Of a DNA stretch of 64,000 bases, positions 9,313 to 29,475 are shown piece by piece. A model generated the notes under the pieces. It was not told the origin of the DNA. It saw only the letters and a program-made list of their open reading frames with translations, and did no database searches. A program made the translations under genes and the position numbers. Position 1 is the stretch's first letter. Each line of letters starts with the position of its first letter. Source of the stretch: Planctomycetota bacterium (GTDB lineage Bacteria; Planctomycetota; UBA11346); assembly GCA_038231435.1 (NCBI GenBank), contig JBBRLJ010000018.1:32001-96000 (forward strand), written 5' to 3'.

Positions 9313-9494
9313 GGGGCCCCATCGCCCCGCCGATGGGGCGGGCGCCGAGGGACGGTGGGCGGATATCATCGGCGCAGCCGATCCGCCCACGATCTCGCCG
9401 CCCGGCGGCGAGATCGAGTCCCGACAAAGCCCGTGGGGTAGGCCGCAAGGCCGTAGGGGCGAAGCCCCTGATACCAACAGGGGCGAAGCCCCTG
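9313..9494 (-). repeat. Structured REP-like element, copy A (inverted relative to the copies at 28856 and 29103)
   Basis: Reverse complement aligns over ~155 bp with 28856-29013 and 29103-29262; the terminal AGGGGCGAAGCCCCT hairpin is duplicated. Confidence 0.9.
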
Positions 9495-9583
9495 ACACCA
9501 AAGCCCCCTTCCGTGGAAGCTCCGCCGGCTAGGCACCGACCAGGAAGGTGTTCCTGGTATCCTAGTCTCATTGGAGACTTGAC

Positions 9584-9892
9584 ATGGATACGAGTCGAAA
9601 CCCGGATCAAGCCTCGGCGAGCGAAGAGCTGAAACTCGCTGCCAAGCACCTGTACGGCGCCGCCGACAGCACCTTCGAACGCATCGTCGGCAAGGACCTG
9701 CGGTCGCATATACGCAGCGCCGCTCGCCATATCTTCCAGGCGGGCGTGGCCGCGGTGGACGAGTCCGAGCGTCGCCTGCGTGAACGCCGCCGCGCCTTCG
9801 CCCAGAGAGCGCAGGATCGACCCCTCGAGCCGACCGCCGCGTCGGTCCCGGCGAGCGACATCGCCGGTGGCCACGTGCCGGAATGCCTCTGA
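9584..9892 (+). CDS. Small helical hypothetical protein (possibly phasin-like)
   Basis: GGAG RBS; amphipathic helical sequence; overlaps the start of the UbiB-family gene. Confidence 0.55.
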   Translation: MDTSRNPDQASASEELKLAAKHLYGAADSTFERIVGKDLRSHIRSAARHIFQAGVAAVDESERRLRERRRAFAQRAQDRPLEPTAASVPASDIAGGHVPECL

Positions 9893-11484
9893 GCCCAGCG
9901 CTTGCACCGACACCGGTGGCGATCGCCATCGTGCCCGAGCTACGCGCTCCGGCCCCACTCCCCACCTCGCTGGTGCGGCGCGGGGCTGAGGGCGTGTGGC
10001 TCATCGCGCGGCTCGCCATCGGGTATCTCGCGCTGATCGTCTGCGAACGCCTATGGATCCCGACGCGCCGTTGGCGCATCGCCATGGACGCGTGGGGAAG
10101 CAGATGCTTCACCGCGCACGTACGCAAGCACGGCGCCATGCTCATCAAGATCGGGCAGTTCGTCGCGAGCCGCCCCGATCTGTTCCCCCTCGCCTACATC
10201 GAATCGTGCGCGGCCCTGCGCGACCAGGCTCCGGCGCGGCCGTTCAACGTGGTCGCGGCCGTTCTCGATCTCACCTACGAGGGCCGCACCGCCGCGCACT
10301 TCTCGCGCATCGACGAGATCGCCATCGCCGCCGCCAGCTTCGGTCAGGTGCACCGCGCGTGGCTGACCGATGGGAGGATGGTCGCGATCAAGGTCCAGTA
10401 TCCCGGTCTCCAGCGACTGGTCGCCATCGATCTGTTGCTGACGCGCGCGACCATGCGCCTGCTCAGGATCCTGGTGCACGGCTTCCCGTTCCACGACCTG
10501 CTCGCCGAGCTCGAACGCGCGAGCGCCAGCGAACTCGACTACCTGCAGGAAGCGACCTCGGCCGACCGGCTGCGTCCTTGTCTCGAAAAGCACGGCCTGT
10601 CGGCGCCGACGATCGTCTGGGAGCACACGCGCGAGAAGGTCCTGGTGATGGAGTTCGCGCCGGGAGCGACCTTGGCGCGCACCGACCTCGAGGCCCTGGG
10701 CCACGACGAACGGCTGCGCGTCGCCAATGCCATCATCGATTGCTACCTGTCGATGCTGCTCGACGAAGGCTTCTATCACGCCGATCCGCATGCCGGCAAT
10801 TTCGTCTACGACGCCGGACGCATCTGGCTGATCGATTTCGGCATGACCGGCAGCATCACCAAGCGCGAGGCCGAACTCTACCGGCGCTTCATGATCAACG
10901 TCCAGGGCCAGGATACCGACGGCATGATCGATGTGATGATCCAGCTGGGATTCATCCTGCCCGAGGTGCACCGCGATCAGCTGCGCAAGGTCGCGCGCGA
11001 ACTCTACGCGAGCCTGAAGGATTTCGCGCCGCAAGCGCTCAAGGGTTCGCGCAGGCAGTACGAGATCGGCGCGAAGATCAACGAGATGCTGCGCCGATCG
11101 CAGGGCATCGTCTTCCCGCAACACACCATCATGATCTCGAGAGCCACCAGCCTGCTCGAGGGATTGTGCGTCGAGCTGGTTCCCGACACCAGCTTCCTGA
11201 ACCTGGTCCGGCCGCGCCTGCAGAAGATCATCACGCCGTGGTCGCAGGTGCGGCGCATGCTCGACGAAGCCCGCGAGATGTGGCATGCGCTGCGCATCCT
11301 GCCCGATCGCCTGGCGGCCCTGCACATGCCGCACGCAGGATGGATGGCGCATGCGACGGTAGCCGGCTGCGTGCTGCTGGCGTCGACCCAGCTGCAACCC
11401 GGAGTGCTCCGCGACATCGCCATCGTCTGCTCGAGCATCGCCGCGGTCGCGTCGCTGGTGCGGCATCGCCGCAGTGGCTTTTAG
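9883..11484 (+). CDS. UbiB/ABC1/AarF family atypical kinase
   Basis: IKIGQFVASRPDL, AAASFGQVH, VAIKVQYP, ELDYLQEA, HADPHAGN, IDFG; C-terminal TMs. Confidence 0.92.
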   Translation: MPLSPALAPTPVAIAIVPELRAPAPLPTSLVRRGAEGVWLIARLAIGYLALIVCERLWIPTRRWRIAMDAWGSRCFTAHVRKHGAMLIKIGQFVASRPDLFPLAYIESCAALRDQAPARPFNVVAAVLDLTYEGRTAAHFSRIDEIAIAAASFGQVHRAWLTDGRMVAIKVQYPGLQRLVAIDLLLTRATMRLLRILVHGFPFHDLLAELERASASELDYLQEATSADRLRPCLEKHGLSAPTIVWEHTREKVLVMEFAPGATLARTDLEALGHDERLRVANAIIDCYLSMLLDEGFYHADPHAGNFVYDAGRIWLIDFGMTGSITKREAELYRRFMINVQGQDTDGMIDVMIQLGFILPEVHRDQLRKVARELYASLKDFAPQALKGSRRQYEIGAKINEMLRRSQGIVFPQHTIMISRATSLLEGLCVELVPDTSFLNLVRPRLQKIITPWSQVRRMLDEAREMWHALRILPDRLAALHMPHAGWMAHATVAGCVLLASTQLQPGVLRDIAIVCSSIAAVASLVRHRRSGF

Positions 11485-11507
11485 TTGGGGGGCTACGGCC
11501 CCCCAAC
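11484..11507 (+). terminator. 10-bp hairpin with cUACGg tetraloop directly after the stop codon
   Basis: GTTGGGGGGC-TACG-GCCCCCCAAC between convergent genes. Confidence 0.5.
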
Positions 11508-11577
11508 ATCGGCCTCCGGCCTGCCCCCCAAAAGGCAGAGATCAGGCGGGTCTAGAGACGGGAGCTTCCTCGGATCC

Positions 11578-12291
11578 CTAGCGGAAGACGCGGTCGTCGG
11601 CGGAGGGCGGCGGGGGAGGACCCATCTCGGGGGCGGAGTCGGGCTTCTCGATCTTTTCGGGTTCGACGAGCGCGGCTGCGGCGTCGACCAGGAAATGTCC
11701 GGCGTGGGCGGCGCGCAGGCGTTCGAGGCTCGCCTTGGCTTCCTCGACCCTAGACAGATGCATCAGCGCCATGACCTCGTAGTAGCCGTAGCGCGCGGAT
11801 TGCGGCTTGGCCACCGAGACCACGTCGAACAGCCCCTGCCAGTCGCTGCCGTCGACCAGCTGCGCGAGCTTCGCGTCGCTGGTCGCGATGGCGCCCTGGT
11901 CGTCGGGAAGGAAGGGCCCAATGATGCCGAGCACGCCCTTCACGGTGCCGTCGACCGGATCGCCCTTCTTGCCGGCGATCGAGACGTGGTGGTCGGTGCG
12001 GCCGTGCACCCACACCGTCGATTCGAGCACGCCGTCCCCACCAGACTTGCGCTCTTCGATGCGCACCACGATCAGGTCAGATGACTTGCGCGTCAGCTGC
12101 GCGCCGATGTCCGGGGAATTCACCAGGTCGATGTCCTTCACGCCGCGCGCGTCGAGCTCCTTGGCGGCGTCGGCGCCGAGCACGACATGGACATGCTTGC
12201 CGCCGGCCTCGGCGAGGGTCTGGGCGATGCGCTCGGCCGCGGCCTTGTCCGGCCCGCTGAAGAGCACGAGGATCATCATCATTTCGACCAT
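11578..12291 (-). CDS. Hypothetical exported protein with a C-terminal TPR-like helix pair
   Basis: Hydrophobic N-terminus, GC3-biased coding pattern, YYEVMALMHLSRVEEAKASL. Confidence 0.7.
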   Translation of the reverse strand: MVEMMMILVLFSGPDKAAAERIAQTLAEAGGKHVHVVLGADAAKELDARGVKDIDLVNSPDIGAQLTRKSSDLIVVRIEERKSGGDGVLESTVWVHGRTDHHVSIAGKKGDPVDGTVKGVLGIIGPFLPDDQGAIATSDAKLAQLVDGSDWQGLFDVVSVAKPQSARYGYYEVMALMHLSRVEEAKASLERLRAAHAGHFLVDAAAALVEPEKIEKPDSAPEMGPPPPPSADDRVFR

Positions 12292-12379
12292 GCGCGGAGC
12301 ATAGCCGGTGCTGGTTTGCCCGGAAGCGCCGGCTTGCCGGACGCCGGGACATTTTCACCCTGCTTGCTAGTCTCCGCCC

Positions 12380-13174
12380 ATGCGCGTAGCGCGGCTCGCC
12401 TGGCTGATGTTCGTGACGGTGCTCAAGCGCCGCCTCGCCTACCGCGGGGACCTGCTGCTGCAGGGACTCGACGAGATCATGCGCGGTCTGGTCAATTTCA
12501 CGATGCTCCAGGTCTACCTGTCGAAATGCTCGGAGGTCGGTAGCTGGACCAAGCCGCAGCTGACCTTCATCCTGGGATTCAGCATGATCCCGACGGCGCT
12601 GTTCCACTGCGTGTGCGGCAACCTCTATTCGCTGTCGAGCACCTACATCATCCAGGGCAACCTCGATCGCGTGCTGCTGCGGCCGTACCCGGCCTTCCTG
12701 CAGATCTGCTTCGACCGCCTGGCGATCGAGGATCTCTCGGGCGTGGTGCTCGGCATCGCGGTGATGGCGTTGGCATTGCCGTACCTGCCGGATTTCCGCT
12801 ACGATCCGCTGCACCTCGCGCTGCTGGTCGCGCTGATGGCCTCGGCGTTCGTGCTGGTGGTGGCGGTGTTCATGGCCTTCGCCGCCACCGGCTTCTGGTT
12901 CGAGGATCGCGTCGGCATGGTTCCGCCGGTCTACAACCTGATGGAGCTCGGACGCTGGCCGAACCGCATCTACCACCCCGCGCTCCAGGCGCTGGTCAGC
13001 TTCGTGATCCCGTTCTCGTTCGTCGCCTTCTACCCGGCCGGGGTCTTCACGGGAAACAAGGAGGCGAGCTGGAATGCCGCCCTGGCGACCCCAGTGGTAG
13101 CGACACTGGCACTCGCGCTCGCGCTCTGCATGTGGCGAGCCGGCATCCGCCGCTACAATTCGACAGGCACCTAG
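12380..13174 (+). CDS. ABC-2 type permease (DUF990-like)
   Basis: LAYRGD, IIQGNLDRVLLRP, IPFSFVAFYPA, GIRRYNSTG; about 6 TMs. Confidence 0.88.
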   Translation: MRVARLAWLMFVTVLKRRLAYRGDLLLQGLDEIMRGLVNFTMLQVYLSKCSEVGSWTKPQLTFILGFSMIPTALFHCVCGNLYSLSSTYIIQGNLDRVLLRPYPAFLQICFDRLAIEDLSGVVLGIAVMALALPYLPDFRYDPLHLALLVALMASAFVLVVAVFMAFAATGFWFEDRVGMVPPVYNLMELGRWPNRIYHPALQALVSFVIPFSFVAFYPAGVFTGNKEASWNAALATPVVATLALALALCMWRAGIRRYNSTGT

Positions 13175-13287
13175 GGGTGTCGGCGTAACATTTGGCAGGG
13201 CAAGGGCATCGGTTTCCCGATGAACCGCCTGCCGGGTGCTTCGTTGATCTCTTCGTTCGTTGTCTCGGCGCAGCCGCAGGAGCACTC

Positions 13288-14829
13288 ATGGCCCGTCCCG
13301 CCCCCTCGTCCACTCCCTCGCGCCGCCGTTCCGGCGGAGGTGGCGGCTGGCTCTTCCTGTTCGTGGTGGTTGCCGCCGCGGCCGCGGTGTTCTTCTTCGC
13401 CGGCGACAAGGTGCGCGACGTCCTCGGCATCGCGCGCAAGCCCGCCAGCGAAGGCAACGAGCCCACCGCCCCGGCCTCGGTCGAGGGCAAGGTCGTCGAG
13501 CGCCTTCCGCACGAGGCGATGGGCACCAGCGCGGTCGCCACCAAGGCCCCCGAGCAGGCCAAGCCGGTCGAGGTCAAGCCGGTGGTCGACAAGCCGACGA
13601 TCGTGGCGTTCAAGGACCAGGCCAAGGCCGAAGGGCTGGTCGCCGAGGCCGAGAAATATTACAAGACCTTCAAGTGGCAGCAGGCCAAGAGCGCCGCCGA
13701 CCGCACCATCGGGCTGAGCGCCAAGCCGGGCACCCTCGCGCGCGCACGCGACATCTCGAGCGGCTCGAGCGAAATCGAGAACCTGTTCAAGAACCTCGAC
13801 GACAAGGATGAGCTGACCCGCAACTACGACACCTCGCCCAGCCTGGTGCAGATCGACTCTGCGACCGGCCCGATGCTGGTGGTCCCGGTGAGCGGAGACA
13901 ACAGCAAGGATCCGATCATCGTCGATCAGGATCCGGTCAACTACATCAAGACCATGAGCCGCGCCGGCAAGGTCAAGGCGCTGGTGAAGGGCAAGAAGGA
14001 CTTCATCTACGGCGAACTGCCCGACACCCTGACCGAGGTCACCCTCGTCGATCAGACCAAAGTGAAGCAGGAGAAGCAGGCTGATTTCACCCAGAAGCTC
14101 GCCGCGCTGCGCAACAGCTCGGCGGCGCGCGACGCGCTGGCGTGGTACGACGCCGCGAAGTTCGCCTACCGCAACCGCCTCGACGACCAGGTCACCGAGA
14201 TGCTCGACCAAGCGCTCGAGTTCGATCCGGAGCTGGTGAAGAGCGTGCGCGAGGACAAGGCCGCGCGGCTGTACGCCTCGATGATCTTCCACCTGAAGAA
14301 CAACAACAAGAAGCAGGCCGACACCTACATGGGGATGATCCATCGCAAGTACGCCGACACCGACCAGGGCAAGCAGGCGCAGCTGTATTACGACGGCAAG
14401 ACCCAAGAGCTGGTGGCGATGGCGATGGACGAGGACCGCAAGCGCAAAGAGGACGCCGACAAGCGCCGTCTCGCGCGCCTCGACAAGGCCAAGCAGGCCG
14501 GCGACAACACCAAGGTCGCTGCCATCGAGAAGGAATCGACCGAGGTGGAAGTGGTCGCCGACAACGACATTCCGGCGAATCCTGACGAATCTGCCGCGGA
14601 GAAGGCCTACCAGGAAGGCTATAAGGCGTACTCGAAAGCCGTCGACATGCCCGCCACCTCTGAACGCAATGTGGTGTACCGCCAAGCCGCCAAATCGTTC
14701 GGCGCCGCTGTGGCGATGTACAAGAAGCTCATCGAGAAGAATCCTGCCAACATGGAGAGCCTTCAGAACAAGATGGTCGAGGCGAACAAGCTCAAGTTCG
14801 GCGCGGACAAATACGTGACGGCTTTCTGA
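13288..14829 (+). CDS. Membrane-anchored helical/TPR-like hypothetical protein, paralog 1
   Basis: AGGAG RBS; single N-terminal TM; strong codon bias; shares motifs with 14989-16428. Confidence 0.85.
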   Translation: MARPAPSSTPSRRRSGGGGGWLFLFVVVAAAAAVFFFAGDKVRDVLGIARKPASEGNEPTAPASVEGKVVERLPHEAMGTSAVATKAPEQAKPVEVKPVVDKPTIVAFKDQAKAEGLVAEAEKYYKTFKWQQAKSAADRTIGLSAKPGTLARARDISSGSSEIENLFKNLDDKDELTRNYDTSPSLVQIDSATGPMLVVPVSGDNSKDPIIVDQDPVNYIKTMSRAGKVKALVKGKKDFIYGELPDTLTEVTLVDQTKVKQEKQADFTQKLAALRNSSAARDALAWYDAAKFAYRNRLDDQVTEMLDQALEFDPELVKSVREDKAARLYASMIFHLKNNNKKQADTYMGMIHRKYADTDQGKQAQLYYDGKTQELVAMAMDEDRKRKEDADKRRLARLDKAKQAGDNTKVAAIEKESTEVEVVADNDIPANPDESAAEKAYQEGYKAYSKAVDMPATSERNVVYRQAAKSFGAAVAMYKKLIEKNPANMESLQNKMVEANKLKFGADKYVTAF

Positions 14830-14988
14830 CGGGCTTTTAGTCGGGGTGCCTGTGGCCCCCGACGTCGGCCGGCCTTGCCCCCAGGAAGAAATTGCGTGGG
14901 CTTCGTTGCGGTCTGGTTGTTTGGTCGCTGATAGACCGCGGCACGAGGTAGTCGCGAGCGCGACGAGCGCGCGAATGGCGGTCCTACG

Positions 14989-16428
14989 ATGGAGACGAGC
15001 GGTATGAACCAACCACCGGCGGCGAAACGGCGGGGCACGGGGTGGCTCGTGCTCGGGATCGTGATGGTTGGGGTTGGGGTGATCGCGGTGGTGTCGAGCG
15101 GGCGGATGCGGGCGGCGATCGGGATCAGCGCGATGCCGGGGGATGCGGGGCGGGAGCCGGTCGGGGATGCGGCGCACGGCGATGCGGCGGTGGCGGCGCG
15201 TGGGCATGAGGTGGTGATGCCACCGTCGGCGGTGGTGCTCGCGCCCGCCACTTCGCCAGCGCGACCGGCGGAAATCCCGACGGGATCGCCGGCGATATCC
15301 GCGAAACGATCTGGAACGGATGAGAAGACCGATGAGAAGGAGGCCGGGCAGGTCCTGGAATCCGCCCAGAGGTCGCTCGCAACGTTGACGTGGTCGGAGG
15401 CCGGCGTGCTGGCGGGGCGCGCCGCGGCGCTCGCGGGCGACCCTGGGACCAAAGAACGGGCAATGGGCGTAATGGCGCTCGCACACCAGGCCGAGCTGGC
15501 GTTCGCGCGACTCAAAGAGCGCGATGAGCTCTCGCGCAATTGGGATACGCATCCGAGCCTGGTGCGCATCGGCGATGGAACCTCGGGGATGCTCGCCATT
15601 CCGCTGGCCGAGATCCAGCCATCCGGGCCCGAGCCGGCCGTCGCGCCCGGCGATCCGGTCGCGTTCATCGAAACCGCTCGCAAGCTCGGCCCGGTGCATG
15701 CCTTGGTCAAGGGCCGCAATGAGTACATCGTCACGGTGCTGCCTGACAGCATCGGCGATATCTCGCGCGTCGATGTCGCGGCGGCGATCGCACAGCGGCG
15801 CGCCGAACTCACCGCCAAGCTCGCCGACATCGGCGGGGGCGCGCAAGCCGGGGAAGCGCTGGCGTGGTACGCTGCGGCGCGTTTCGCGTTCCGCAATCGG
15901 GTCGACGATCTGGTCAGCGGGCCGCTTGCCAAGGCCTTCGCCTTGGATCGGAACCTGGTCGAGAGCGTACGCGATGACAAGTCGGCGCGGCTGTTCGCGG
16001 CCTTGGTGTTCCACGTCACCAATGGCAATCGTACCCAGGCGGCGGCATTCTACGGGCGGATCATTCCGGCTTATGCCGACACCGAGCATGGCAAGCAGGC
16101 CGAAGCGTACTGGAAGCGGCGCTCCCAGACGCCCGATACGCCCGCGGCTCCGACGCCCGCGGCCGGGCCGAAGGCCGCCGACGCGGGGCAAGGTCCCGAC
16201 GCCGAATTCGCGGCGGGGAGAGACGCCTACGCGAAGGCGCAGCAACTGCCGCTCACGGACGAACGCAACGCGCTCTATCGTGCGGCGATCGCGCATTTCG
16301 ACGTGGCGCTTGCCGGTTACAAAGCGATGCAGGCCAAGACGCCGACTGATGCCCAGCTCCAGGATCGCGTGACCGATACCCAGATGCTGCGCTTCGCGGC
16401 GATGAAGTATCTCACTGATTTCGAGTGA
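14989..16428 (+). CDS. Membrane-anchored helical/TPR-like hypothetical protein, paralog 2
   Basis: DELSRNWDTHPSLVRI vs DELTRNYDTSPSLVQI; ALAWYAAARFAFRNRVDD vs ALAWYDAAKFAYRNRLDD. Confidence 0.85.
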   Translation: METSGMNQPPAAKRRGTGWLVLGIVMVGVGVIAVVSSGRMRAAIGISAMPGDAGREPVGDAAHGDAAVAARGHEVVMPPSAVVLAPATSPARPAEIPTGSPAISAKRSGTDEKTDEKEAGQVLESAQRSLATLTWSEAGVLAGRAAALAGDPGTKERAMGVMALAHQAELAFARLKERDELSRNWDTHPSLVRIGDGTSGMLAIPLAEIQPSGPEPAVAPGDPVAFIETARKLGPVHALVKGRNEYIVTVLPDSIGDISRVDVAAAIAQRRAELTAKLADIGGGAQAGEALAWYAAARFAFRNRVDDLVSGPLAKAFALDRNLVESVRDDKSARLFAALVFHVTNGNRTQAAAFYGRIIPAYADTEHGKQAEAYWKRRSQTPDTPAAPTPAAGPKAADAGQGPDAEFAAGRDAYAKAQQLPLTDERNALYRAAIAHFDVALAGYKAMQAKTPTDAQLQDRVTDTQMLRFAAMKYLTDFE

Positions 16429-16841
16429 CCAGTACAGGAGGCCGACCAGGACTCCTGTTCCGACTCTTGGCTCGGCACGATGCTGGCATGCTCACGCTTC
16501 ACGTCCTAGCTGATCATGATCGGCGACTCCATCGCCTACGCTGAACGCGACCGGGAAGAAATGTGTTTGGCTTGGTCGTGTCGTATGGCGTCGCAGCTGA
16601 GCGATTGTCACACGCTGTGGTCGCGGGTTGCACGACGGATACCGTTGGGCGCGGCACGGACCGTGCCCCCCATCGATCAGGAACTCCTCAGCCGGTATGC
16701 GAATGCAGGGAAGCGGTCCGCACGCAGGAATCTTCCAGAGATCATCGGGATTTCAGCGCAATGAGCTGAGTCATTCACGTATTCAAGCTTGTCTTAGGCT
16801 CAAAGGTAGTTCGGGTACAAGAATCCCCAGGTGGGGCATAC

Positions 16842-19139: not shown

Positions 19140-19431
19140 CCTGGCGCATGTGCGGTCCCATTACAGATTGACGGTGCGTGGAATCGCATCGCCGAGCGCG
19201 CTTCGAACTGCGCATACGTGTGACACACGATGGGACTTGGCTTTGAAGCCTTAACCTAAATGGCGATTTCTGCCGCACGTGTCTTCACGTAGAGTTCCGT
19301 ACCCCGAGCGCAGCGTGCGCCCTTCCCCAGGTGAAGCTCCCTCCTCGAGTATTGTCCGGTCGCATCGACTTGGGAACGTCTGCTCAAGTAGCGCAAATAT
19401 CCTGTTCATCCGTAACCCGTCCGTACTAGGC

Positions 19432-20016: not shown

Positions 20017-21243
20017 ATGATGAAGCCACGCGGTGGATTCACCCTCATCGAGATGCTGGTGGTGATCACGATCATCGCCATCCTGTCCGGAATGCTCTCG
20101 GTCCTGGTCGGCATCGCCCAACGCAAGGCCAGGCAGACCAATACCAGGGCGATCCTGATGAAGGTCGACCAAGCCATCCGCTTGTTCCGTAATGAGACGG
20201 GAACCTATCCGTTCCAGACCGATCTCTCGAACGCCGATGCCGATCCATCGCAGTGGACCAACAACCTCGGATTCAGGCTGGCTTGGAAACCGATAGATGC
20301 CGCCGCCCGCACCGCCTACAGGTCGGATCTCCAGGCAGATCTGACGGACATCCACAAGAAATTCTTCTTCAAGAACGGGAAGAACGTGCCGCCGGTCGGT
20401 GACTCGAGCGAAGGAACGCACGCCTTCCGGTTCGGTGATTACTACTTCTCCCCCTCTGACCCGAATTTCAAAACCAACCTCCTGTTGGGAGAGGGGAGCC
20501 TGTCGCTCACCGACGACAAGTTCACCACTCCAGACGATCAGGCCTGCAACTACATGATTCCGGGGTGGAGCTCCGCCGGCTCTGGCTCGGCCTTGGTACT
20601 GACACGCATGGCGGACGAGATCAGTGCTCTTCGCTACCTTTCGGGGCAACTCCCAGTCGAAGCCCCGAAGGGATTCGATCCCACCATACCCGCCGACAAG
20701 GCGCTGCGCCCAAATCTCGACGCCCGCTATTCAATCCTCCATTTTTCCGGCTCCATCCCATATACCTCCTACCACTACGTGCCTTACAACAAGGCGGGCT
20801 GGTACGCCGATGACTCTCGTGGTCCGGTGCTCACCGCCGCGGCTGCCAGGGCCAAAGGTTGGCGGTGCGAATACTTGGCCGATACCCTGCGGCGGCAGGT
20901 ATCCATCGGCAGCCCGGGTGAGATCGATCCCACCGGCACCACCATACTGGATTCCTATGGGCGTCCGTTGGTCTACGTCTGCACGTTCACGCCTGGCGCC
21001 CGGGGCTTCTCGTATGGATTGGGCGGTGGCGTCGGCGACGAGGCCAATTACGGCATGACCCCTGTCTCTCGCCTCGCCACGAGCGATTTGTCCTCGGACA
21101 TCCGTACCACTGCCGCCCCGACCTATGCCATGGAATTCGAGCTGTGGAGCGCTGGCCCAGATGGGCGGTTCTCCTCCATACGATCGGATGTGGCGAATCA
21201 CGACAATATATCGCTGCTGCCGTATAATAAGGATCTGAGATGA
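20017..21243 (+). CDS. Prepilin-type protein (GspG-like 2, large insertion)
   Basis: GG|FTLIEMLVVITII; GTYP; LDSYGRPLVY; FELWSAGPDG. Confidence 0.9.
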   Translation: MMKPRGGFTLIEMLVVITIIAILSGMLSVLVGIAQRKARQTNTRAILMKVDQAIRLFRNETGTYPFQTDLSNADADPSQWTNNLGFRLAWKPIDAAARTAYRSDLQADLTDIHKKFFFKNGKNVPPVGDSSEGTHAFRFGDYYFSPSDPNFKTNLLLGEGSLSLTDDKFTTPDDQACNYMIPGWSSAGSGSALVLTRMADEISALRYLSGQLPVEAPKGFDPTIPADKALRPNLDARYSILHFSGSIPYTSYHYVPYNKAGWYADDSRGPVLTAAAARAKGWRCEYLADTLRRQVSIGSPGEIDPTGTTILDSYGRPLVYVCTFTPGARGFSYGLGGGVGDEANYGMTPVSRLATSDLSSDIRTTAAPTYAMEFELWSAGPDGRFSSIRSDVANHDNISLLPYNKDLR

Positions 21244-22679
21244 TCCTGGTCGAGCGCCGCGGCGGCTTCACGTTGATGGAGTTGCTGGTCGTCGTCGCCA
21301 TCATCTCCATTTTGATGGGGATGTTGACCTACAATTTCGCCAAACCGGAAGTGCGTCGCACGTCAGTGAAGCTTGCCGCTGAAGAGCTGGCAGCGACCTT
21401 TCGCAAGGCGCGGGCCCTGGCGATGGAGCGCAAGACCGTCCATGCCGTGGTCTTCCATATCCAAAACAAGCCGGGCAGCAGCGGCATCGTTCTGAACAAC
21501 CGTTCGGGCGGCCATTGGTACCGCATCCTCGGACCAGGAACCTCCGACACCAACGATCGCTCGCAGACCGCCGACGATCTGCCACCGATCGCCAACGGCG
21601 GATACGGGTATAAGCCGCATAACGTCATGGAGACTTCCGAACTCATCAACCGGGCCTGGGTCGATGACCCGCACATCCTGCTTGCGGGCAAGGTGCGCTT
21701 CCTGGCCCTCACCGACATGGATTACGGTGACAGCTCGGGCGTCAATTGGGCGTATCGCGGAATCTCGACCACCGACTACTTCCCGCGTCCCTGGTTCGGA
21801 TGGTACGATACGACGTCGAAGCGGCTGTATCCTTGGGGCGGCTACGATCCCGCGATCGCAGGCAGCGGTTTCTACTATTGGGGCGTCAATCGGGTCGATG
21901 GCGCCATAACCACCGCCACCCGGGATCCCCAACCCATCGGCAGCCGGAATCCTGTCGCCCGCACGCTCGATCACTGGTCTGTCGGTCAGGGCAACAACTG
22001 GTACGACAACATGCTCGCTCCGAGCGCTCCGGCATCGGACACCCTGTACGAGGCCGATTCCCCACGTCCGGTAATCAACGCCTTCTGGCGGGACTGCAGC
22101 CTGATCTTCCTGAGTACGGGTGAGGTGCGCTGGGGCAATTGGCTGCCGGCACGCAAGTGCTCTTTCCTCATGGATGGTATCACCACCGTCGCCACCGGAT
22201 CACTGCCGATGAAGCGCGGGATCAGCGACCGCCAGAACGGCCAGACGGAAGCCTATGCAGGCTACGTGAGTCAGCACACTGTAGCCGAGGCAGGAAACTT
22301 CGATCAGGATTCCGGTGGCTGGTTCATCACGCTCGCCCCTGATTCCGTCGATGACAAAGATACCTTCCCCAGCGCGGAAGATGCCTTGGCCTCCATCTCG
22401 CCGATGTACCGAGTCTTCGTCTCGCGATTGGGCGAGGTCAAGGTGATCGCGGTCTCGAAGACTCCAAAGCTCAATGGTCTCACCGCATTTCCACCCACCG
22501 AAGCATGGTGGAGAAACGCCACCAACATGCAGCAATACTTCCCCGCGGATCGCCTGCTCGATGGGACGATCATCGACACGTCGTGGTGCAATGAAGGCCT
22601 GGGGATCCTGCAGGGCAAGCCGATCACCGATTTCGTCACCCCAACCATGCTTCGCGAACGCCAGGTGTGGATGAAATGA
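21240..22679 (+). CDS. Prepilin-type protein (GspH/FimT-like)
   Basis: GG|FTLMELLVV; AAEELAATFRKARALA...HAVVF; ATGA overlap. Confidence 0.88.
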   Translation: MILVERRGGFTLMELLVVVAIISILMGMLTYNFAKPEVRRTSVKLAAEELAATFRKARALAMERKTVHAVVFHIQNKPGSSGIVLNNRSGGHWYRILGPGTSDTNDRSQTADDLPPIANGGYGYKPHNVMETSELINRAWVDDPHILLAGKVRFLALTDMDYGDSSGVNWAYRGISTTDYFPRPWFGWYDTTSKRLYPWGGYDPAIAGSGFYYWGVNRVDGAITTATRDPQPIGSRNPVARTLDHWSVGQGNNWYDNMLAPSAPASDTLYEADSPRPVINAFWRDCSLIFLSTGEVRWGNWLPARKCSFLMDGITTVATGSLPMKRGISDRQNGQTEAYAGYVSQHTVAEAGNFDQDSGGWFITLAPDSVDDKDTFPSAEDALASISPMYRVFVSRLGEVKVIAVSKTPKLNGLTAFPPTEAWWRNATNMQQYFPADRLLDGTIIDTSWCNEGLGILQGKPITDFVTPTMLRERQVWMK

Positions 22680-23269
22680 TGAACAACCATGGTCGTTCGG
22701 CATTCACACTGATCGAGATCCTGGCCTGCTTGCTGCTGTTCAGCATGGGGTTGATGGCCGTGATCGGCGTCTTCCTCTACGGCCTCAAATCAGCGGCTGC
22801 AGCGCAGGCAGATGCGACCGCCTGGGCCACCGCGCTCTCGGTGGTCAAAGATCCCCTGCCGCTCGGCGTGGTCGCGGATCCGGTCACCGGCCAACTCACG
22901 CCGTGGACCTGGACATCTAGTGGCGCCACCTGGACCGCCGACGACGGCTCCGGGCAACCAGCATGGGTGTACACGTCGTGGCCCATCGATACTCCCGGCA
23001 GCATCACCGTGGTCGACATGGCCGATCCGAAAAGCAATTCCCCTACGGCCTTCCCCTCCGTGGCTACTCCCGCGGTTGGCTGCGCTCGCGGGTGGCTCAA
23101 TGGCTATTACGTGGAACGGCGTGAGCAGTCGCTCAGCAGCGACCGTCTCAGCGACAACATGCGCCTGGTCGAGGTCCGCGTCGATGTCTACTGGGCCGGG
23201 TATGGGTTCGGGGACGGCAAGCCCCTGGCCAGCACCGTCGACCGCGTGGTGCGGAGCGGCGGACCATGA
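22676..23269 (+). CDS. Prepilin-type protein (GspI/PilV-like)
   Basis: SA|FTLIEILACL...GLMAVIGVF; C-terminal VEVRVDVYW; ATGA overlap. Confidence 0.88.
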   Translation: MMNNHGRSAFTLIEILACLLLFSMGLMAVIGVFLYGLKSAAAAQADATAWATALSVVKDPLPLGVVADPVTGQLTPWTWTSSGATWTADDGSGQPAWVYTSWPIDTPGSITVVDMADPKSNSPTAFPSVATPAVGCARGWLNGYYVERREQSLSSDRLSDNMRLVEVRVDVYWAGYGFGDGKPLASTVDRVVRSGGP

Positions 23270-24243
23270 GACGTTTCCGCAATCAATCCGCCGCATTGAC
23301 CCTGCTCGAATTGATCGTTTCGATCACTTTGGGCATGATCCTGATCGCCCTCGCGTGGACGACGTTCGCAAAATCGAAGGCCGCCGCCGCGCGCACCTCG
23401 ATGCGCGTCGATCTGCATACCTCGGCCGCGGTCTATCGTGAGCTTTTGCAGCGAGATTTCGCCAACCTGTCGCCAGCGACCGCCTTCTTCGCGCGCAGTA
23501 CTCCCCAGGTCCTCACGGGCGCAGATAAGATAGACACCGTCGAAGTGGTCTTCATGCGTACGACCGCGCCACTGCGCACCCAGTTCGCAGAGGACGTCAC
23601 CGAACAGTTCATGGCTGACTACCACTGGGTCCGTTGGCGCTTCAAGCGCACATGGCGACAGGTCGGGCCAACATGGAAGGTCGTCGACTACACCCTCTAT
23701 CGTTCGCGTAGTACTCCGACCCGCAGGTGGAGAGCCGTGGGGTCCATCGTCGGGCCGAATTTCAGCGTTTGGGACAATGGTTCCCAGTCGCTCAAGCCTG
23801 CCCCCGACGAAACGCTCGCCTATCTCAACATGCCCCGGCCACTGCGCGATGCATCCGCCGGCATTCCTTCGCTCGATTGCAATAAGTACAACACGCCGAT
23901 CGCTTCGATACCGTTCGGAGGTGCGCTGAAGGGCGACATCGGGGACCTGACCGATCTCGATAACAATGAATTGGTGAGCAGCACCCGGGTCCGGGATTTC
24001 GCGATCGGCTGGGTCGATGCTGGTGGCGCACTCACCACCATCACTAGCGCGGTTGCCGCGGATGTTCGCATCGACGGCTTGCACATGGACGTGGTCGGCC
24101 CTACCGGCAACGCTTACCTCACCCAGCTCAAGAACCAGGTGCGGGTGATACGCATCGCCATGAACCTCGCGGACGGCGGAGTCTCGCAGGACTTCTCCTT
24201 CTCGATCGCCACGCCCGGATTTCCTCCGCAGTTTCGGCCATGA
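23266..24243 (+). CDS. Prepilin-type protein (GspJ/PilW-like)
   Basis: AA|LTLLELIVSI; LLQRDFAN; RVIRIAMNL; ATGA overlap. Confidence 0.85.
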   Translation: MRRFRNQSAALTLLELIVSITLGMILIALAWTTFAKSKAAAARTSMRVDLHTSAAVYRELLQRDFANLSPATAFFARSTPQVLTGADKIDTVEVVFMRTTAPLRTQFAEDVTEQFMADYHWVRWRFKRTWRQVGPTWKVVDYTLYRSRSTPTRRWRAVGSIVGPNFSVWDNGSQSLKPAPDETLAYLNMPRPLRDASAGIPSLDCNKYNTPIASIPFGGALKGDIGDLTDLDNNELVSSTRVRDFAIGWVDAGGALTTITSAVAADVRIDGLHMDVVGPTGNAYLTQLKNQVRVIRIAMNLADGGVSQDFSFSIATPGFPPQFRP

Positions 24244-27200
24244 ACCTCTTCACCTCCCGCCGCCGCGCCACCGCGCCACCACGTGCACTCGAGGTTCCTA
24301 TGCATCAGGCCGCTCCATGCACGAGGCGGGGCTCGATCATCATGCTGCTGCTCATGAGCGTCATCATGATCATGCTCGTGATCGCATTCTCGTTCTTGCG
24401 CTCGATGCAGATGTCGCGCGGCGCCACCCTGGTTCAACGCAAAGACGACCTGGCCCGCCTGGCCGCCGAAATGGGCATGCAGCACGCCGCCTCGGTCTGC
24501 CTCCATGCATACGCCATGAGCAATGAAGTTCGCGACGACATGACCGTACCTGCGGTGAGCCGATTCGATGCTCCTGACAGCAACGTCTTCAAGCTGATGT
24601 CCAGCCGTCTCTCGTCAGCGGATATCAGCAATCATCCGCCACAGCCCTATGACATGTCTCCAGAACTCCCCTTCCAGAACATGTTCGACTCGGGAGCCCT
24701 AGCAGGCCCGCGTACCGTCGGCTACACCTGGGGTGTCATCAACAAGTCCGGCTACTCACGCCTCACTGAAGCCAACCGCTTCTCGTACGACGCGACCAGG
24801 CCCAGTTCGCTGTATGATCCCGCGAGCTACGATCTCTACGATCCGGCCGCTCCCAATCCCGCCGTCGTGAAGACCGCATTTCCGCCGGTCGATCCGTTCG
24901 TGCGCGGCGCAGCTCTCATCAAGCGGCATCCTAGCGACAATCCGCTATTGCTTGATGCCGACTTCCGACCGGTGATCGACGCCCGCGATGCCCGTTATCG
25001 CCTACGCTACGCCGTGGACATCCAAGACATGTCCGCCGCACTGTGGCTGAATACCGACATGCCATGGCTGACCGCCGTCCAGAAGGCCCAGGCCCGCACG
25101 GCCTATAAGGAGTGTTTCTATGCGGTCGGGACGCAGTTGCGCTTCGACTACAATCCTGCCGATACGTTCGAGAACATCCTCCTCGGCCATGGGGCCGCCG
25201 CCAACGCCCGGTTCGTGAATGGCCAGGCGAGGGAGTGGCCTGAACGGGGCGGCGGCCCGATGTGGTATCGCGGTCCTAATCAGTGGAACCAGTCTCAGCG
25301 CATCAACCATTGTGTCTTCGGCAGCCCCTTCATGAACTGGAATGACCCGCCCTCCAAGGGGTGGATCGGCAGCGCGATCCCGTCGTTCAACGACCTGGGC
25401 TTCGCCCTGCAGGACGATTCCCAGAACTGGCATGAGATGGGCGAGGTCAAGGACAACGAACCGCGCGTGCGAGGCGACAAGGTCGCTCAATTCGCCGGGA
25501 CCCCGTTCGGGCGACCCGACGGCGCTGCGACCGATCATCCCTGGGCGTTGAATGCGTTGATCATCGCCCCGCGCGTTCTCGAGGCCATGGTTGCGGCATA
25601 CATGCCGCCGGTGGTCCGCTCAGTAGCTGTCACCACGGAATGGTGCACCCCCTACTGCAAGACGGTGGACGCTTTCGGCAACGTCAACACCAGTTACAGA
25701 GGATCGCCGATCGCGGGGGTGGCCAACCCGACCGCGTGGAGCATCCCGATCAAAGCCAACCTGACTATTCCCGGATCGGGGCCGGATCTCTTCACCAACG
25801 CGTTCACGCCGTTGGGGCAGACGCCCTTCCCGTACGCGACCCCGCCGATGCGCGATTACTGGACGACGCCTGTAGGCCCGGCAGCGGCGCCAAGCACCTG
25901 GCGATGCGACCACACTCCCGTCTCCGATACCCGCACCAACGCTCAGCGATATCCCGGTACGCGCTTTTTCTCGGTCCTCGCCACCGAACCCATGGGCCAG
26001 TGCCTGACCCGTTGGCGTGGCAAGAATCCTGATGGAACACCCTACGACAGCATCGCTCTGGCATGCCTGCCACGCCAAACCGACAGCGATCCTGCTTCGT
26101 CGAATCCCCCGGCCCCGCCGTGGGCCCTCGGCACGGCCTATGCCGTCGACGACCGCGTAAGCTACCTCGGCGAGATCTACGTCTGCAACTCGACGGTGGA
26201 CGTCGCTGCCGCGGCCAATCCCGGCAATGGACCTGGCGGCGCTACGACTCGCTTCGTGCTCGAAGCCCCGATATCGGTCTTCCCTCCGGCTCCCGGAGGC
26301 GACCACCTCGGGCGGCACATCATCTTCTACAAGCCCGACTACGTGGACCCCAATCCAGGCAATAGCATCCTCGCGGTGAAAAATACGGTCTACAAATATC
26401 TCTCCGTCGCCAATTTTAATAGCATCAATGCCCCCAACTGGTGGCTCTACCCCGGCGACAACATCAACAACTCTTCCGAATTCATGCCGGGAGGGCCGTT
26501 CAGTCCCGGCATCAGCGGCGCCGGCACCGACGGGTTCGTGTCAGCGTACAAGGGCTCTTCATGGACCGTCTATTCGCCGCCAGTCCCAGTGATCGTCAAT
26601 GGCGAGGTCTATCCCTGCCCCGACTGGGGCAATCCGAGCCCGCCGGCAACGCCGGCTGCACTGCTCGCAACCCAGGTGACGGCGGCTCAGACCCCCCCAC
26701 CCGCTCGCGGCCCGCTCGGTGTGGTGAACCCTGAGGGATGGCAGATCAGCCGCGCTGCGGGATCGTGGGGTTCCCCCGCCAAGAGCACCGTTCCGAACTC
26801 CTATTACAACCGGCTATCGCTCGCCTTCTGGCACGCCGTCTTCGTCGCCCAGGCAGCGAATATGTCCTGGGCTGATCGGCAAGACTGCCGCTCACAGGCG
26901 TTCGCGCCCGGGAGTGCCAACGTTGGGGATTTCGGCGTCTACTACGCGACAAATCCCGATCAATTCGACTTCACATCCTATAAGCGCAAAGGTCCTGCTT
27001 CGTGGTCGCCGGCAGCAGCCGACTTCGACAGCGTCGAGCAGATCGATCGGCAGTTCGTTGCCAACATGGGCGAGAGCTTCACCCAGCCAGGACACGTCAC
27101 CCCGACCCAGGCCTCCGCCTCGCGTCCGCCCCGTTACTTGGGCAAGCAGACCTACACGCCGAAGTTCAGCACCAACTGGTGCGGAGGCCGCGACGGGAAT

Positions 27201-27923
27201 TCGTACTGCTATACCAACTACAACAATATGCGGGTCGCCGAATATTGCGTGACCAACAACATCCGCACCTTGCTCGATCCCCTCGACACCAGGCCGGGCG
27301 GGGCGCTGACCGCGTTCAGCACCGATCCGCAGCTGCCGCCACCCCACAATATCTGGCTGCTGGATGAGTGGAATGCCGAGGCCGAGGCCGGATACATTCC
27401 GGGCGTGAACGTCGGCGCCCAGCCGACCACGGTGGCGCGTGCACGCGCGAAGATGATGGAGCGCGTATTGAATGACTGGCGTCTCAGCTTCCTCGGCTCC
27501 AGCAAGGCCTATGCGGCCTCCTTCCTTCCCAAGGATTTCGATGGCGACGGCAAGGTGTTCTGCAGCGGCTACCTGACTCCCAATGCCGCCGATCCGGACT
27601 GTGGCCTGACCTGCTGGAAATCAGCGGATGCCAGTGGCAACGGACCCGGCAAGGCGGCGGGTGACCTGACCATCTATTCGGTCACCGGCTGCCTCACCAT
27701 CACTCGCAGCCATCAATTCAAGATCCATGTCCGCGGCGAGCTTTATGACAACTTCCTCGATCGCGCGGTCAGCGAGCAGTACCTCGAATCGGCCGTGATG
27801 ATCGACCCCGATGACAATATCACTCGAGGCGCGTTGCCCAGCGGCCTCGCCGATTCGGTGCTCATCATGCAGCGGCCGATCCATAGTTATTATCGCGGAT
27901 TCTTGAATCGGGCATACCCGTGA
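24240..27923 (+). CDS. Large GspK/PilX-like protein, probable pilus-tip adhesin (alternative start 24300)
   Basis: RRG|SIIMLLLMSVI lacking Glu5; ARLAAEMGMQHA; C-terminal RSHQFKIHVRGE; CBM5/12-like motif at 26121-26186. Confidence 0.85.
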   Translation: MNLFTSRRRATAPPRALEVPMHQAAPCTRRGSIIMLLLMSVIMIMLVIAFSFLRSMQMSRGATLVQRKDDLARLAAEMGMQHAASVCLHAYAMSNEVRDDMTVPAVSRFDAPDSNVFKLMSSRLSSADISNHPPQPYDMSPELPFQNMFDSGALAGPRTVGYTWGVINKSGYSRLTEANRFSYDATRPSSLYDPASYDLYDPAAPNPAVVKTAFPPVDPFVRGAALIKRHPSDNPLLLDADFRPVIDARDARYRLRYAVDIQDMSAALWLNTDMPWLTAVQKAQARTAYKECFYAVGTQLRFDYNPADTFENILLGHGAAANARFVNGQAREWPERGGGPMWYRGPNQWNQSQRINHCVFGSPFMNWNDPPSKGWIGSAIPSFNDLGFALQDDSQNWHEMGEVKDNEPRVRGDKVAQFAGTPFGRPDGAATDHPWALNALIIAPRVLEAMVAAYMPPVVRSVAVTTEWCTPYCKTVDAFGNVNTSYRGSPIAGVANPTAWSIPIKANLTIPGSGPDLFTNAFTPLGQTPFPYATPPMRDYWTTPVGPAAAPSTWRCDHTPVSDTRTNAQRYPGTRFFSVLATEPMGQCLTRWRGKNPDGTPYDSIALACLPRQTDSDPASSNPPAPPWALGTAYAVDDRVSYLGEIYVCNSTVDVAAAANPGNGPGGATTRFVLEAPISVFPPAPGGDHLGRHIIFYKPDYVDPNPGNSILAVKNTVYKYLSVANFNSINAPNWWLYPGDNINNSSEFMPGGPFSPGISGAGTDGFVSAYKGSSWTVYSPPVPVIVNGEVYPCPDWGNPSPPATPAALLATQVTAAQTPPPARGPLGVVNPEGWQISRAAGSWGSPAKSTVPNSYYNRLSLAFWHAVFVAQAANMSWADRQDCRSQAFAPGSANVGDFGVYYATNPDQFDFTSYKRKGPASWSPAAADFDSVEQIDRQFVANMGESFTQPGHVTPTQASASRPPRYLGKQTYTPKFSTNWCGGRDGNSYCYTNYNNMRVAEYCVTNNIRTLLDPLDTRPGGALTAFSTDPQLPPPHNIWLLDEWNAEAEAGYIPGVNVGAQPTTVARARAKMMERVLNDWRLSFLGSSKAYAASFLPKDFDGDGKVFCSGYLTPNAADPDCGLTCWKSADASGNGPGKAAGDLTIYSVTGCLTITRSHQFKIHVRGELYDNFLDRAVSEQYLESAVMIDPDDNITRGALPSGLADSVLIMQRPIHSYYRGFLNRAYP

Positions 27924-27990
27924 ATGTGTTGCCTGCGGGATCCGCGAGTCTCTCTCGCATATTCTAAATCCCGACGTGCGGGCGCGCCCA

Positions 27991-28014
27991 CCTGCCTGCC
28001 TGCCTGCCTGCCTG
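27991..28014. repeat. (CCTG)6 microsatellite
   Basis: Read directly; intergenic. Confidence 0.95.
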
Positions 28015-28186
28015 AGGGCGTTTGCGCCCAGGCGATCTCCCCCGCACACGGAATCGCGGTTTGACAGCCGGCGGGTTCGATGCTCGCACGATTCGCAGCG
28101 TGGGACGGGAATGCTTCGGATGCGAAGTTGAGGACCTGCGGGTCGAGCACCCCTTGCCCGGGCAGCTGGCGCGCCACCATGCGCGC

Positions 28187-28843
28187 ATGCTCATCGCCCC
28201 GACTTCCAAGCTGCTCATGATCGGCGATTCCATCACCGACTGCGAACGTGCCCGCCCGGTCGGCGAAGGCCTGTTCGGAGCGATCGGCAAGGGCTATGTC
28301 GCCCAGGTCGATGCCCTGCTCGGTTCTACCTATCCGGCCCACCAGATCCGCGTGGTCAACATGGGCTGCAGCGGCAACACCGTGCGCGATCTCAAGGCGC
28401 GCTGGCAGACCGACGTGCTCGATCAGAAGCCCGACTGGCTGTCGATCATGATCGGCATCAACGACGTCTGGCGCCAGTTCGACCTGCCGCGGCAGACTGA
28501 GATCCACGTCGGTTTGGAGGAATACGAACGCACCCTCGACGAATTGGTTGCCAGGACCAAGCTGATCCTGAAGGGTCTGGTGCTGATGACGCCCTTCTTC
28601 ATCGAATCCCAGCCCAACGACGCGATGCGCGCACGCATGGATCAGTACTCGGCCGCGGTCAAGAGAGTCGCAGCCAAGCACCAGACGTTGTTCGTCGACA
28701 CGCAGGCCGCCTACGGCCGCGTGCTCGCGCACACCCATTCCGCCGCCCTGGCCTGGGACCGCGTTCACCCGAACCACATCGGCCACATGGTGATGGCGCG
28801 CGCGTTCCTCGACGCCGTGGGTTATGCTTGGACCGGGAAGTAG
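28187..28843 (+). CDS. SGNH/GDSL hydrolase
   Basis: IGDSIT, NMGCSGN, IGINDVW, DRVHP. Confidence 0.93.
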   Translation: MLIAPTSKLLMIGDSITDCERARPVGEGLFGAIGKGYVAQVDALLGSTYPAHQIRVVNMGCSGNTVRDLKARWQTDVLDQKPDWLSIMIGINDVWRQFDLPRQTEIHVGLEEYERTLDELVARTKLILKGLVLMTPFFIESQPNDAMRARMDQYSAAVKRVAAKHQTLFVDTQAAYGRVLAHTHSAALAWDRVHPNHIGHMVMARAFLDAVGYAWTGK

Positions 28844-28855
28844 CTTTTATTTTTC

Positions 28856-29353
28856 AGGGGCTTCGCCCCTACGGCCCTGACGGGCCTACCCCACGGGCTT
28901 TGTCGGGGCTCGATTTCTCCGCTGCGCTGCGAAATCGTTGGCGGATGGGCTTCGCCCATTGTATCCGCCGACCGCCCCTCGGCGCCCGCCCCATCGCGGA
29001 GCGATGGGGCCCCCGTCCAAGATGGCGGCACAGCCGCCACCGGCCGCCGAGTCCTGGTTTGCGTGAACAATGGGCGCAGCCCATCACGCAAACTTTTATC
29101 AAAGGGGCTCCGCCCCTACGGCCCTGACGGGCCTACCCCACGGGCTTTGTCGTGGCTCGTTTTGTCCAGCGGAGCTGGCCAAAACGTGGGCGGATCGGCT
29201 CCGCCGATCATATCCGCCCACCGCCACTCGGCGCCCGCCCCATCGCGCAGCGATGGGGCCCGGGGGCGAAGCCCCATCAAAACCGTGGCAACGCCACCGG
29301 CCGCCGAGTCCTGGTTTGCGTGAACAATGGGCGCAGCCCATCACGCAAACTTT
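28856..29353 (+). repeat. Tandem pair of ~250-bp structured REP-like elements, copies B (28856-29096) and C (29103-29353)
   Basis: Shared AGGGGCT(T/C)CGCCCCTACGGCCCTGACGGGCCTACCCCACGGGCTTTGTCG head and an identical ~62-bp tail (29035-29096 and 29292-29353). Confidence 0.95.
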
Positions 29354-29377
29354 CTGGCCGCCCGGCGGACAGAAAGA

Positions 29378-29471: not shown

Positions 29472-29475
29472 ACAA

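Follow-up and report, generated by a model that had tools for sequence, protein, structure and literature searches.

What a repeated, intricately folding sequence behind a hydrolase gene might be, and by what route it came to lie there, is the question posed by a 64,000-nucleotide stretch of the genome of a Planctomycetota bacterium (GenBank assembly GCA_038231435.1, contig JBBRLJ010000018.1, positions 32,001 to 96,000 of the forward strand; hereafter the window, numbered from its first letter). An initial annotation, made from the letters alone, had described three copies of the element, A on the minus strand and B and C on the plus strand, and had proposed either an undescribed non-coding RNA (ncRNA) family or a non-autonomous mobile element which folds as single-stranded DNA (ssDNA) and is moved in trans by an HUH transposase. 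Our results favour the latter: with a probability of about 0.8, the element is a mobile, ssDNA-folding repeat. The copies are members of a large family, numbering in the hundreds, of small mobile elements without coding capacity, found only in one family of uncultured Planctomycetota.

Along the B strand, the element runs from a T-rich leader through a head hairpin (H1), a second hairpin (H2, in subfamily S1 only) and a C-rich linker to a closing stem (P0), a conserved internal loop, a further stem (P1) and a three-way junction bearing arm 1 and a bulged arm 2, after which a terminal hairpin may follow; it measures 130-170 nt and has five core helices. The closing stems, first arms, arm-2 tips and flanking hairpins quoted for A, B and C in the initial annotation are all present where they were placed, and its proposal that structure is kept while sequence changes is borne out by a larger alignment. 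Among 49 aligned copies from many genomes, whose related rows are not independent, 95.8% of 1,613 cells pair and 23 of the 33 pairs vary on both sides (222 two-sided against 4 one-sided changes). None of 500 shuffles matched this level of pairing, while slid control structures paired at 38-47%, a control biased in the structure's favour because the structure was written from these same sequences. Copy B folded as RNA gave z = -4.4 and its opposite strand folded as DNA z = -4.8, scores that none of 200 shuffles equalled; six DNA folds ranged from z = -3.7 to -6.2. These results support selection or constraint acting on structure.

Which nucleic acid adopts this structure is a separate matter, on which folding energies are of little help, as they hardly distinguish the two strands. 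An RNA is expected to favour G.U pairs on its own strand. The 242 full copies yield 189 distinct cores; of their 5,287 paired cells, 5,037 hold Watson-Crick pairs and 151 mismatches of other kinds, the two wobble orientations being equally rare (49 G.T against 50 A.C). The preference of G.T wobbles for the B/C strand, remarked upon in the initial annotation, thus fails at the scale of the family. With loops taken from the strand opposite B, 163 of 174 arm-2 loops are GNA, as are 41 of 55 H2 triloops, while the H2 tetraloops are GNNA in 40 of 41 (38 GNYA and 2 GNRA). Head-type hairpins, with loops classed on either strand, have GNA in 229 and ANA in 70 of 327 cases, 318 of these hairpins being intergenic. 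One class of arm 1 reads GNA-GC-GNA-GC-GNA in 52 of 54 copies, the middle bases varying freely; stacked sheared G.A pairs occur in DNA, and an arm with three GNA units fits them. Passages of PMC13037366 describe GCGNAGC and GCGNNAGC as stable in DNA and far less so in RNA, state that of 64 triloops the mini-hairpin structure forms with GNA alone, the RNA counterpart melting far lower, and ascribe poor SSB binding to DNA mini-hairpins; in a passage of PMC10085684, GNNA figures as a stable DNA tetraloop family. The working fold looks like single-stranded DNA of the strand opposite B and C.

The proposal of an ssDNA-folding, non-autonomous element is accordingly supported by Watson-Crick stems, DNA mini-hairpin loops and covariation, while that of an undescribed ncRNA family is countered by the lack of wobble asymmetry, the DNA-type loops, the patchy occupancy of orthologous sites and the want of an Rfam match. 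An Rfam scan of the window returned no known family at gathering score, and the four hits within the cluster of copies were at chance level. One candidate, the DUF3800-II RNA motif, scored 16.8 bits (E = 2.3; gathering score 43.2) on the minus strand over H1, H2 and the linker and was taken as chance; the source genome yielded no DUF3800 gene.

Profile searches of the source genome, a 5.2-Mb assembly estimated as 87.6% complete, gave 337 non-overlapping hits (242 full) at 198 loci, or 0.77% of the sequence. These comprise 206 members of S1, the type of A, B and C, and 131 of S2, which is missing H2 and differs in every variable stem. Overlap with called genes was seen at 0 of 178 loci, and 83 of the assembly's 216 contig ends fall in a copy. 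Beyond this genome, a covariance model recovered the element in 4 of 6 genomes of the same family and in 0 of 144 genomes of other families in the phylum (strict filters, 27 candidates scored per genome), BLAST did so in 14 of 24 genomes from within the family and in 0 of 16 from outside it, and an exact pattern matched 30 of 48 family genomes, a few of these matches being due to chance. Named records holding the element are mostly Planctomycetota metagenome-assembled genomes. Three loci titled as Burkholderiales (L084, L094 and L101; L, G and C numbers are our own handles for loci, genomes and contigs) were taken as misbinned, their copies and flanks matching source-genome loci by eye; with the duplicate L086 they were excluded from the comparison of IS66-led and repeat-less copies given below, L084 being kept as a row of alignment A2. 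Among viruses and plasmids two strict patterns had 0 matches and a loose one 120, of which none of the 80 listed scored with the covariance model; BLAST against plasmids and phages found no match. A divergent third variant of the element lies in G009 (L255), upstream of a RAYT-like gene having different palindromic repeats of its own.

The placement of the copies is as characteristic as their fold. By gene calls from our own codon model, 165 of 201 outward-facing heads in the source genome point toward a stop codon (151 within 20 nt) and 36 toward a start. A stricter count, which excluded 7 heads called inside open reading frames (ORFs) and 5 at contig edges, found 130 of 180 non-coding first heads in sense and within 20 nt of a stop, where a model of leader composition predicts 5-6%. 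Heads also stand behind 4 of 57 tRNA and tmRNA genes, at 10-13 nt, and about 5 of the remainder come, by eye, after terminator T-tracts, terminators having been found by a scan at 50 of 2,101 gene ends; the per-site rates at stops, tRNA ends and terminators are similar. Elsewhere, a pattern of tRNA arm plus head matched 16 times in 9 of 48 genomes (control 0), the discriminator or CCA lying within about 2 nt of the junction in 15 of the 16 and CCA being kept in 5; the sixteenth is possibly not a tRNA. Metagenome loci fetched separately, 122 in all, offered 61 scorable heads, 36 of which adjoin a stop or a tRNA end. Two related strains (L544 and L415) differ at one tRNA by a truncated unit and the loss of the encoded CCA. 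In G006 (L413), which has 23 tRNA genes in one array, four copies stand behind two of these genes. One head (L462, G000 C34, about 7600), with the nearest stop 515 nt away, comes after non-coding sequence that by eye resembles signal recognition particle (SRP) RNA and that had no Rfam hit.

Comparison of filled and empty sites in relatives points to insertion. For five filled genes with recovered orthologue ends, all five sites are empty in the two same-genus genomes. The orthologues mostly have a TGA stop and GC-rich last codons, whereas the filled alleles have T- or A-rich last codons in four of five cases and TAG or TAA in all five; the protein end of the filled AhcY allele is unchanged. 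The leader probably arrives with the element and may overwrite the last one or two host codons. Contigs assembled from four DNA runs of one study showed high repeat depth and no joint across the cluster in the window, and therefore no empty allele. Residual host spacers are no shorter than normal, a weak test, and thus offer no sign of creeping deletion; neither spacer length nor terminator retention separates such deletion from targeted insertion.

The two ends of the element behave differently. At the head, the T-rich leader starts a fixed ~10 nt before H1 with a T content of 55-65%, compared to 15-18% after ordinary stops, and the same leader precedes tandem copies. As the non-T base ahead of its first T, C was counted 117 times, G 19 times and A 18 times, where background composition is even; the metagenome loci have 32, 2 and 5 CT, GT and AT boundaries, respectively. 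On the folded strand, the head consists of a hairpin, some 9 bases rich in A and an AG at the end. The tail is ragged: 133-nt forms occur, the terminal hairpin is of two kinds, and some copies are truncated or continue into a second leader and H1. No target duplication above chance was found at 20 isolated full copies in the source genome, and ISAs1-type ends, considered by eye, were rejected, no duplications being present. Similarity between tandem neighbours is 95.5%, compared to 79% for random pairs, and their leaders have 5.4 of 10 bases in common versus 4.2. An array in one relative has 16 units, and unit number differs between strains with identical flanks (L544 and L563); truncated upstream copies are fused to the next leader by microhomology.

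The relevant features of the window are listed below with covariance model scores in bits.

8600..9217, plus strand: rpsD; a separate hairpin comes after it at about 9245-9277, and the tail of copy A faces it
9313..9480, minus strand: copy A, subfamily S1, 104 bits; CT/T-rich leader 9470-9480, head hairpin H1 9455-9469, hairpin H2 9441-9452, three-way-junction core 9338-9434, long terminal hairpin 9317-9338
9479..9504, minus strand: extra stacked head (H1 and leader) immediately upstream of the copy A leader
28154..28843, plus strand: SGNH/GDSL hydrolase gene, its stop codon abutting the leader of copy B
28844..29015, plus strand: copy B, S1, 106.9 bits; leader 28844-28855, H1 28856-28870, H2 28873-28886, core 28893-28989, long terminal hairpin
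29016..29097, minus strand: truncated inverted S2 copy (terminal hairpin, closing stems, arm 2), 27.8 bits, cut off by copy C
29093..29263, plus strand: copy C, S1, 105.6 bits; leader, H1 29103-29117, H2, core 29140-29238, long terminal hairpin
29263..29428, minus strand: full S2 copy without H2, 87.4 bits; leader 29418-29428, H1 29403-29417, core 29297-29394, short terminal hairpin, and at its end a second leader and H1 at 29263-29285
29429..29478, minus strand: truncated S2 head, its leader taking in the yicC stop codon (29476-29478)
29476..30312, minus strand: yicC

From the hydrolase stop (28843) to that of the convergent yicC gene (29476), the gap consists wholly of element sequence, in the order B, truncated inverted copy, C, full inverted S2 copy and head fragment. 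Copies A, B and C are real, but the window holds more than these three, the covariance model giving five hits, and what had been read as an extension of B is the truncated inverted S2 copy. The statement that every copy follows closely on a gene 3' end is true of B (13 nt past the stop) and of the copy on the yicC side, but not of C, which sits within the cluster, nor of A, which is antisense to rpsD with its head toward the start of the next gene. Stacked heads as at copy A recur elsewhere in the source genome. The copy after the yicC stop is absent from all 29 orthologous loci fetched from other genomes. In G002 (L048), the same gap is filled by a different, unrelated family of tandem inverted repeats, with stops at the same codons. 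An effect of the element on the last YicC residue was considered and dropped, as orthologues end in the same way. A second hairpin-rich repeat with GNA-type loops occupies positions 6139-6400 of the window in two copies and had 21 BLAST hits in the genome.

A mechanism may be sketched from these observations. An HUH or rolling-circle-type enzyme supplied in trans would recognise the fold and handle the head, which on the folded strand comprises a hairpin, a ~9-nt spacer and a terminal AG, in the manner of a transposon end, joining it to host DNA with no host motif required. Hairpin, spacer and end is the layout of rolling-circle and IS200/IS605-type 3' ends, where none is needed. A circular, concatemeric or read-through intermediate would give rise to arrays and ragged tails. 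Placement at boundaries might arise where DNA becomes single-stranded as nascent RNA leaves the ribosome or a folded tRNA (an R-loop edge), or by repeated head-end joining which creeps upstream to the last base that cannot be lost. This scheme as a whole, a non-autonomous element of ~130-170 nt active as folded ssDNA of the strand opposite B/C and moved in trans, we put forward tentatively, at somewhat less than an even chance.

Several observations weigh against it, or against the DNA fold on which it builds. One invariant T.G pair in the internal loop suits the B/C strand, as does the GNA loop of the long terminal hairpin, which is on the B strand, and compensatory pairs might stem in part from hairpin-templated mutation instead of selection. 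Many junctions show, by eye, 1-4 nt of microhomology instead of a clean cut. Bias with respect to the replication strand is inconsistent (100:98 at one threshold; 40:57, p = 0.02, at another). The searches for an enzyme found no cognate one: in incomplete genomes, 0 of 75 Y1_Tnp loci are bracketed by the element; the 122 metagenome loci had no Y1, reverse transcriptase (RT) or IS66 match; five element-rich genomes had no TnpB; and the source genome had no Y2_Tnp, though a control search was equally silent. Passages of PMC8266576 portray TnpA-REP as acting on folded ssDNA and cleaving at CT; its guide rule does not fit here because the CT of the element lies on the strand opposite GTAG, a motif which S2 is missing.

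We infer an HUH transposase acting in trans as the mover, although the linked RAYT, IS200 TnpA or reverse transcriptase that might have been expected did not emerge, none of the 75 Y1 loci or 30 RT loci being a fit. RVT_1 was not found in 4 of the 7 richest genomes, the source genome included (79-88% complete), and none of the 30 RT loci contains a copy. Three Y1 loci (L249, L255 and L037) have a copy or head nearby. The source genome has one intact long-type Y1 gene with different flanking repeats, one fragment and one dead orthologue. The sole intact Y1 (L001, G000 C28) lies beside a tyrosine integrase and two tRNA genes, its short inverted flanking repeats being unrelated to the element. 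A single-copy Y1/RAYT-like gene with host-like codon use (L460:1498-2334, plus strand, G000 C25; orthologues L464-L490) lies between genes which, named by reading their sequence, we take to be lpxA- and queG-like; every aligned orthologue, from many genera, has lost the HUH motif as well as the catalytic tyrosine, and the gene is apparently a domesticated dead transposase. This dead orthologue had no high-score match in the element-rich genera g2, g3 and g5. No integron attC inverse-core word was noted in the head by eye, and no search aimed at IntI was made; the seven tyrosine recombinases listed are unclassified. A parent element may have gone unassembled, because so many contig ends lie in copies. 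At least seven genes of a four-helix-bundle family (TIGR02436; L461 and G000 C34, C50, C13, C25, C28 and C62) have a structured repeat in common upstream, and behind them lie relics of similar genes in inverted orientation.

The sole enzyme tied to any form of the element is the DDE transposase of IS66, and that to a derived form in relatives. IS66 ends in GTAA and makes 8-bp duplications. In several relatives the S1 core is enclosed by 12-bp inverted repeats; of 13 copies with both repeats, the 8-bp target duplication is perfect in 6 and matches at 7 of 8 positions in 2, and further repeat-bound copies with a target duplication were seen. An autonomous IS66 element in G012 (L173) has the same 12-bp repeat at both ends, and this genome holds 255 matches to the repeat, compared to 2 control matches, together with other MITEs (miniature transposable elements with inverted repeats) sharing the repeat around unrelated interiors. 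G012 also has 35-nt mini-elements with this repeat, one of which (L189) has H1 as its middle. An accessory gene with a Pfam DruA match is present in L173 and in L133, both of them IS66 elements sharing this 12-bp terminal repeat. Judged from these sequences, the core behaves in some relatives as an ordinary MITE that is mobilised by an IS66 transposase.

The IS66-borne form also serves as a control for placement. Repeat-led copies adjoin stops in 6 of 32 cases, whereas repeat-less copies adjoin stops or tRNAs in 31 of 44 (p < 0.0001, with kin not independent); seven copies with the left repeat only were counted as repeat-led, and counting them otherwise gives 4 of 25 versus 33 of 51, also with p < 0.0001. 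Because IS66-borne copies mostly miss stops, boundary placement seems to follow the route of transposition and not the core, unless selection has simply had too little time to sort the IS66 forms.

One rival would extend IS66 to the entire family, the head and leader being a decayed terminal repeat and the repeat-less copies degenerate or locally amplified. Beside the duplications, the repeat shared with L173 and the excess of matches in G012, it draws on the mini-element L189, centred on H1, and on a leader boundary that coincides in position with the outer end of the IS66 repeat. We nevertheless regard it as very unlikely. The source genome has one near match to the repeat, at no copy, and no duplications at its isolated full copies; repeat-bound forms are scattered in at least three places among repeat-less ones in a poorly resolved tree, and mostly miss stops; IS66 was not found in the element-rich genomes G006 and G020, nor any copy inside 25 IS66 loci examined; and a double-strand DDE route would not select for DNA mini-hairpins. 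As doubtful, to our minds, is a structured RNA (a 3'-untranslated-region stabiliser, terminator or ribosome-stalling signal), with placement reflecting benefit to the host and not a route of insertion. The absence of a G.U excess and of an Rfam match, loops that are neither UUCG in sense nor GNRA on the other strand, a T-tract that comes before the head hairpin, sites not conserved between genomes and an IS66-borne core not enriched at stops are set against mostly sense heads (165 toward stops, 36 toward starts), five terminator-like sites in the cluster where shuffles have 0.6, the invariant T.G on the sense strand and the precedent of E. coli REPs, which act so on mRNA according to passages of bioRxiv 2024.07.17.603846. 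Secondary effects of the element on mRNA are not excluded. Strong covariation can come from a DNA fold, recognisable by the lack of G.U excess and by GNA or GNYA loops, which matters for ncRNA discovery screens.

Two further rivals concern how the copies arise and change. Covariation might be largely a mutational by-product of template switching or repair on folded DNA, or of homogenising recombination, in a selfish element whose fold is of little importance. One-sided intermediates are indeed nearly absent (4 versus 222), closing-stem mismatches resembling hybrids of two alleles recur (6 GA, 5 TC), and L544 and L563 differ in unit number. Yet pairs 90 nt apart covary across the three-way junction, and templated correction is insufficient because unpaired features are conserved too (the internal loop, junction bases, bulge and the loop-edge G and A, with free middles); of the rivals considered, we hold this one the least probable. 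RNA-primed copying, requiring no dedicated transposase, is less remote, though still unlikely. A host polymerase would extend a host RNA end, in an R-loop, onto a circular ssDNA template through 1-4 nt of pairing or, in a variant, a reverse transcriptase would jump from the element's 5' end to a host RNA 3' end and the product would recombine into the gene. The precision of 15 of 16 tRNA junctions, the similar rates at the three kinds of boundary, the microhomology joints of truncated upstream copies, the CCA loss between L544 and L415 and the failure to find a cognate transposase among the loci searched are all to be expected from such copying, as is a CT often directly following a stop or tRNA end, from which position the CT is taken to be element-borne. 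The distribution of RVT_1 and of the RT loci speaks against it, as do the fifth or so of heads (36 of 201) facing gene starts and the retention of CCA in only 5 of 16 tRNA matches, because of which mature tRNA is not the usual primer; to our knowledge there is no precedent for RNA-end-primed insertion. A minimal, enzyme-less ssDNA parasite, copied in at host RNA 3' ends (mRNA, tRNA, terminators) via a folded circle, is improbable to the same degree. If true, an RNA-primed parasite would amount to an insertion route coupled to translation or processing, and might explain why REPs crowd behind stops.

We return to the mobile ssDNA-folding repeat and its place among known systems. The derived form in relatives has the 12-bp repeats of an autonomous IS66 and its 8-bp duplications, as IS66 MITEs do, whereas the copies in the window and source genome are polar and arrayed, without terminal repeats or duplications. 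With the right ends of IS200/IS605, with IS91 and with Helitrons, the element shares a hairpin ~10 nt from a fixed end of the folded strand, the absence of duplication, a variable far end and tandem read-through products; it differs in that no linked TnpA, TnpB or Y2 was found (in incomplete assemblies, the Y2 control being silent) and that no conserved target word was seen at its far end. The bcr1, ERIC and YPAL repeats resemble it in size, branched fold, compensatory changes, post-gene location and a mobiliser that is not known, the differences, by description, being the DNA mini-hairpin loops that the element carries on one strand and its want of a TA duplication. The literature searched offered no account of this family, subscription papers and supplements not being covered.

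Our verdict is a REP/REPIN-like, non-autonomous ssDNA element of unusual architecture and targeting, whose mechanism we infer. With REP, REPIN and BIME repeats and their RAYTs it shares a high copy number, intergenic, lineage-restricted and structured copies often just after stops, tail-to-tail heterodimers, tandem arrays, the lack of target duplication and CT at the junction; S1 in the source genome, but not S2, has GTAG at the foot of two hairpins, on the folded strand, and RAYT-linked repeats in these same genomes likewise carry GNA loops. How REP-like repeats spread, and why many sit behind stop codons, is an open question: passages of PMC8266576 call their dissemination poorly understood, and those of bioRxiv 2024.07.17.603846 place one in two E. 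coli REPs no more than 15 nt from a gene. The element makes this question testable through its sharply defined end, three kinds of RNA boundary, tRNA ends met within about 2 nt, and a built-in control in the IS66-carried core, which does not land at RNA boundaries. The differences are equally distinct. A REP is a hairpin of 20-40 bp (in passages of PMC3733652), whereas the element is a multi-helix three-way junction of 130-170 nt; GTAG is replaced in several relatives; and tRNA ends and terminators are abutted as well as stops. The element thus departs from REP/REPIN in its size and architecture, the lack of a cognate RAYT among those found, the strand of the CT and the range of RNA boundaries.

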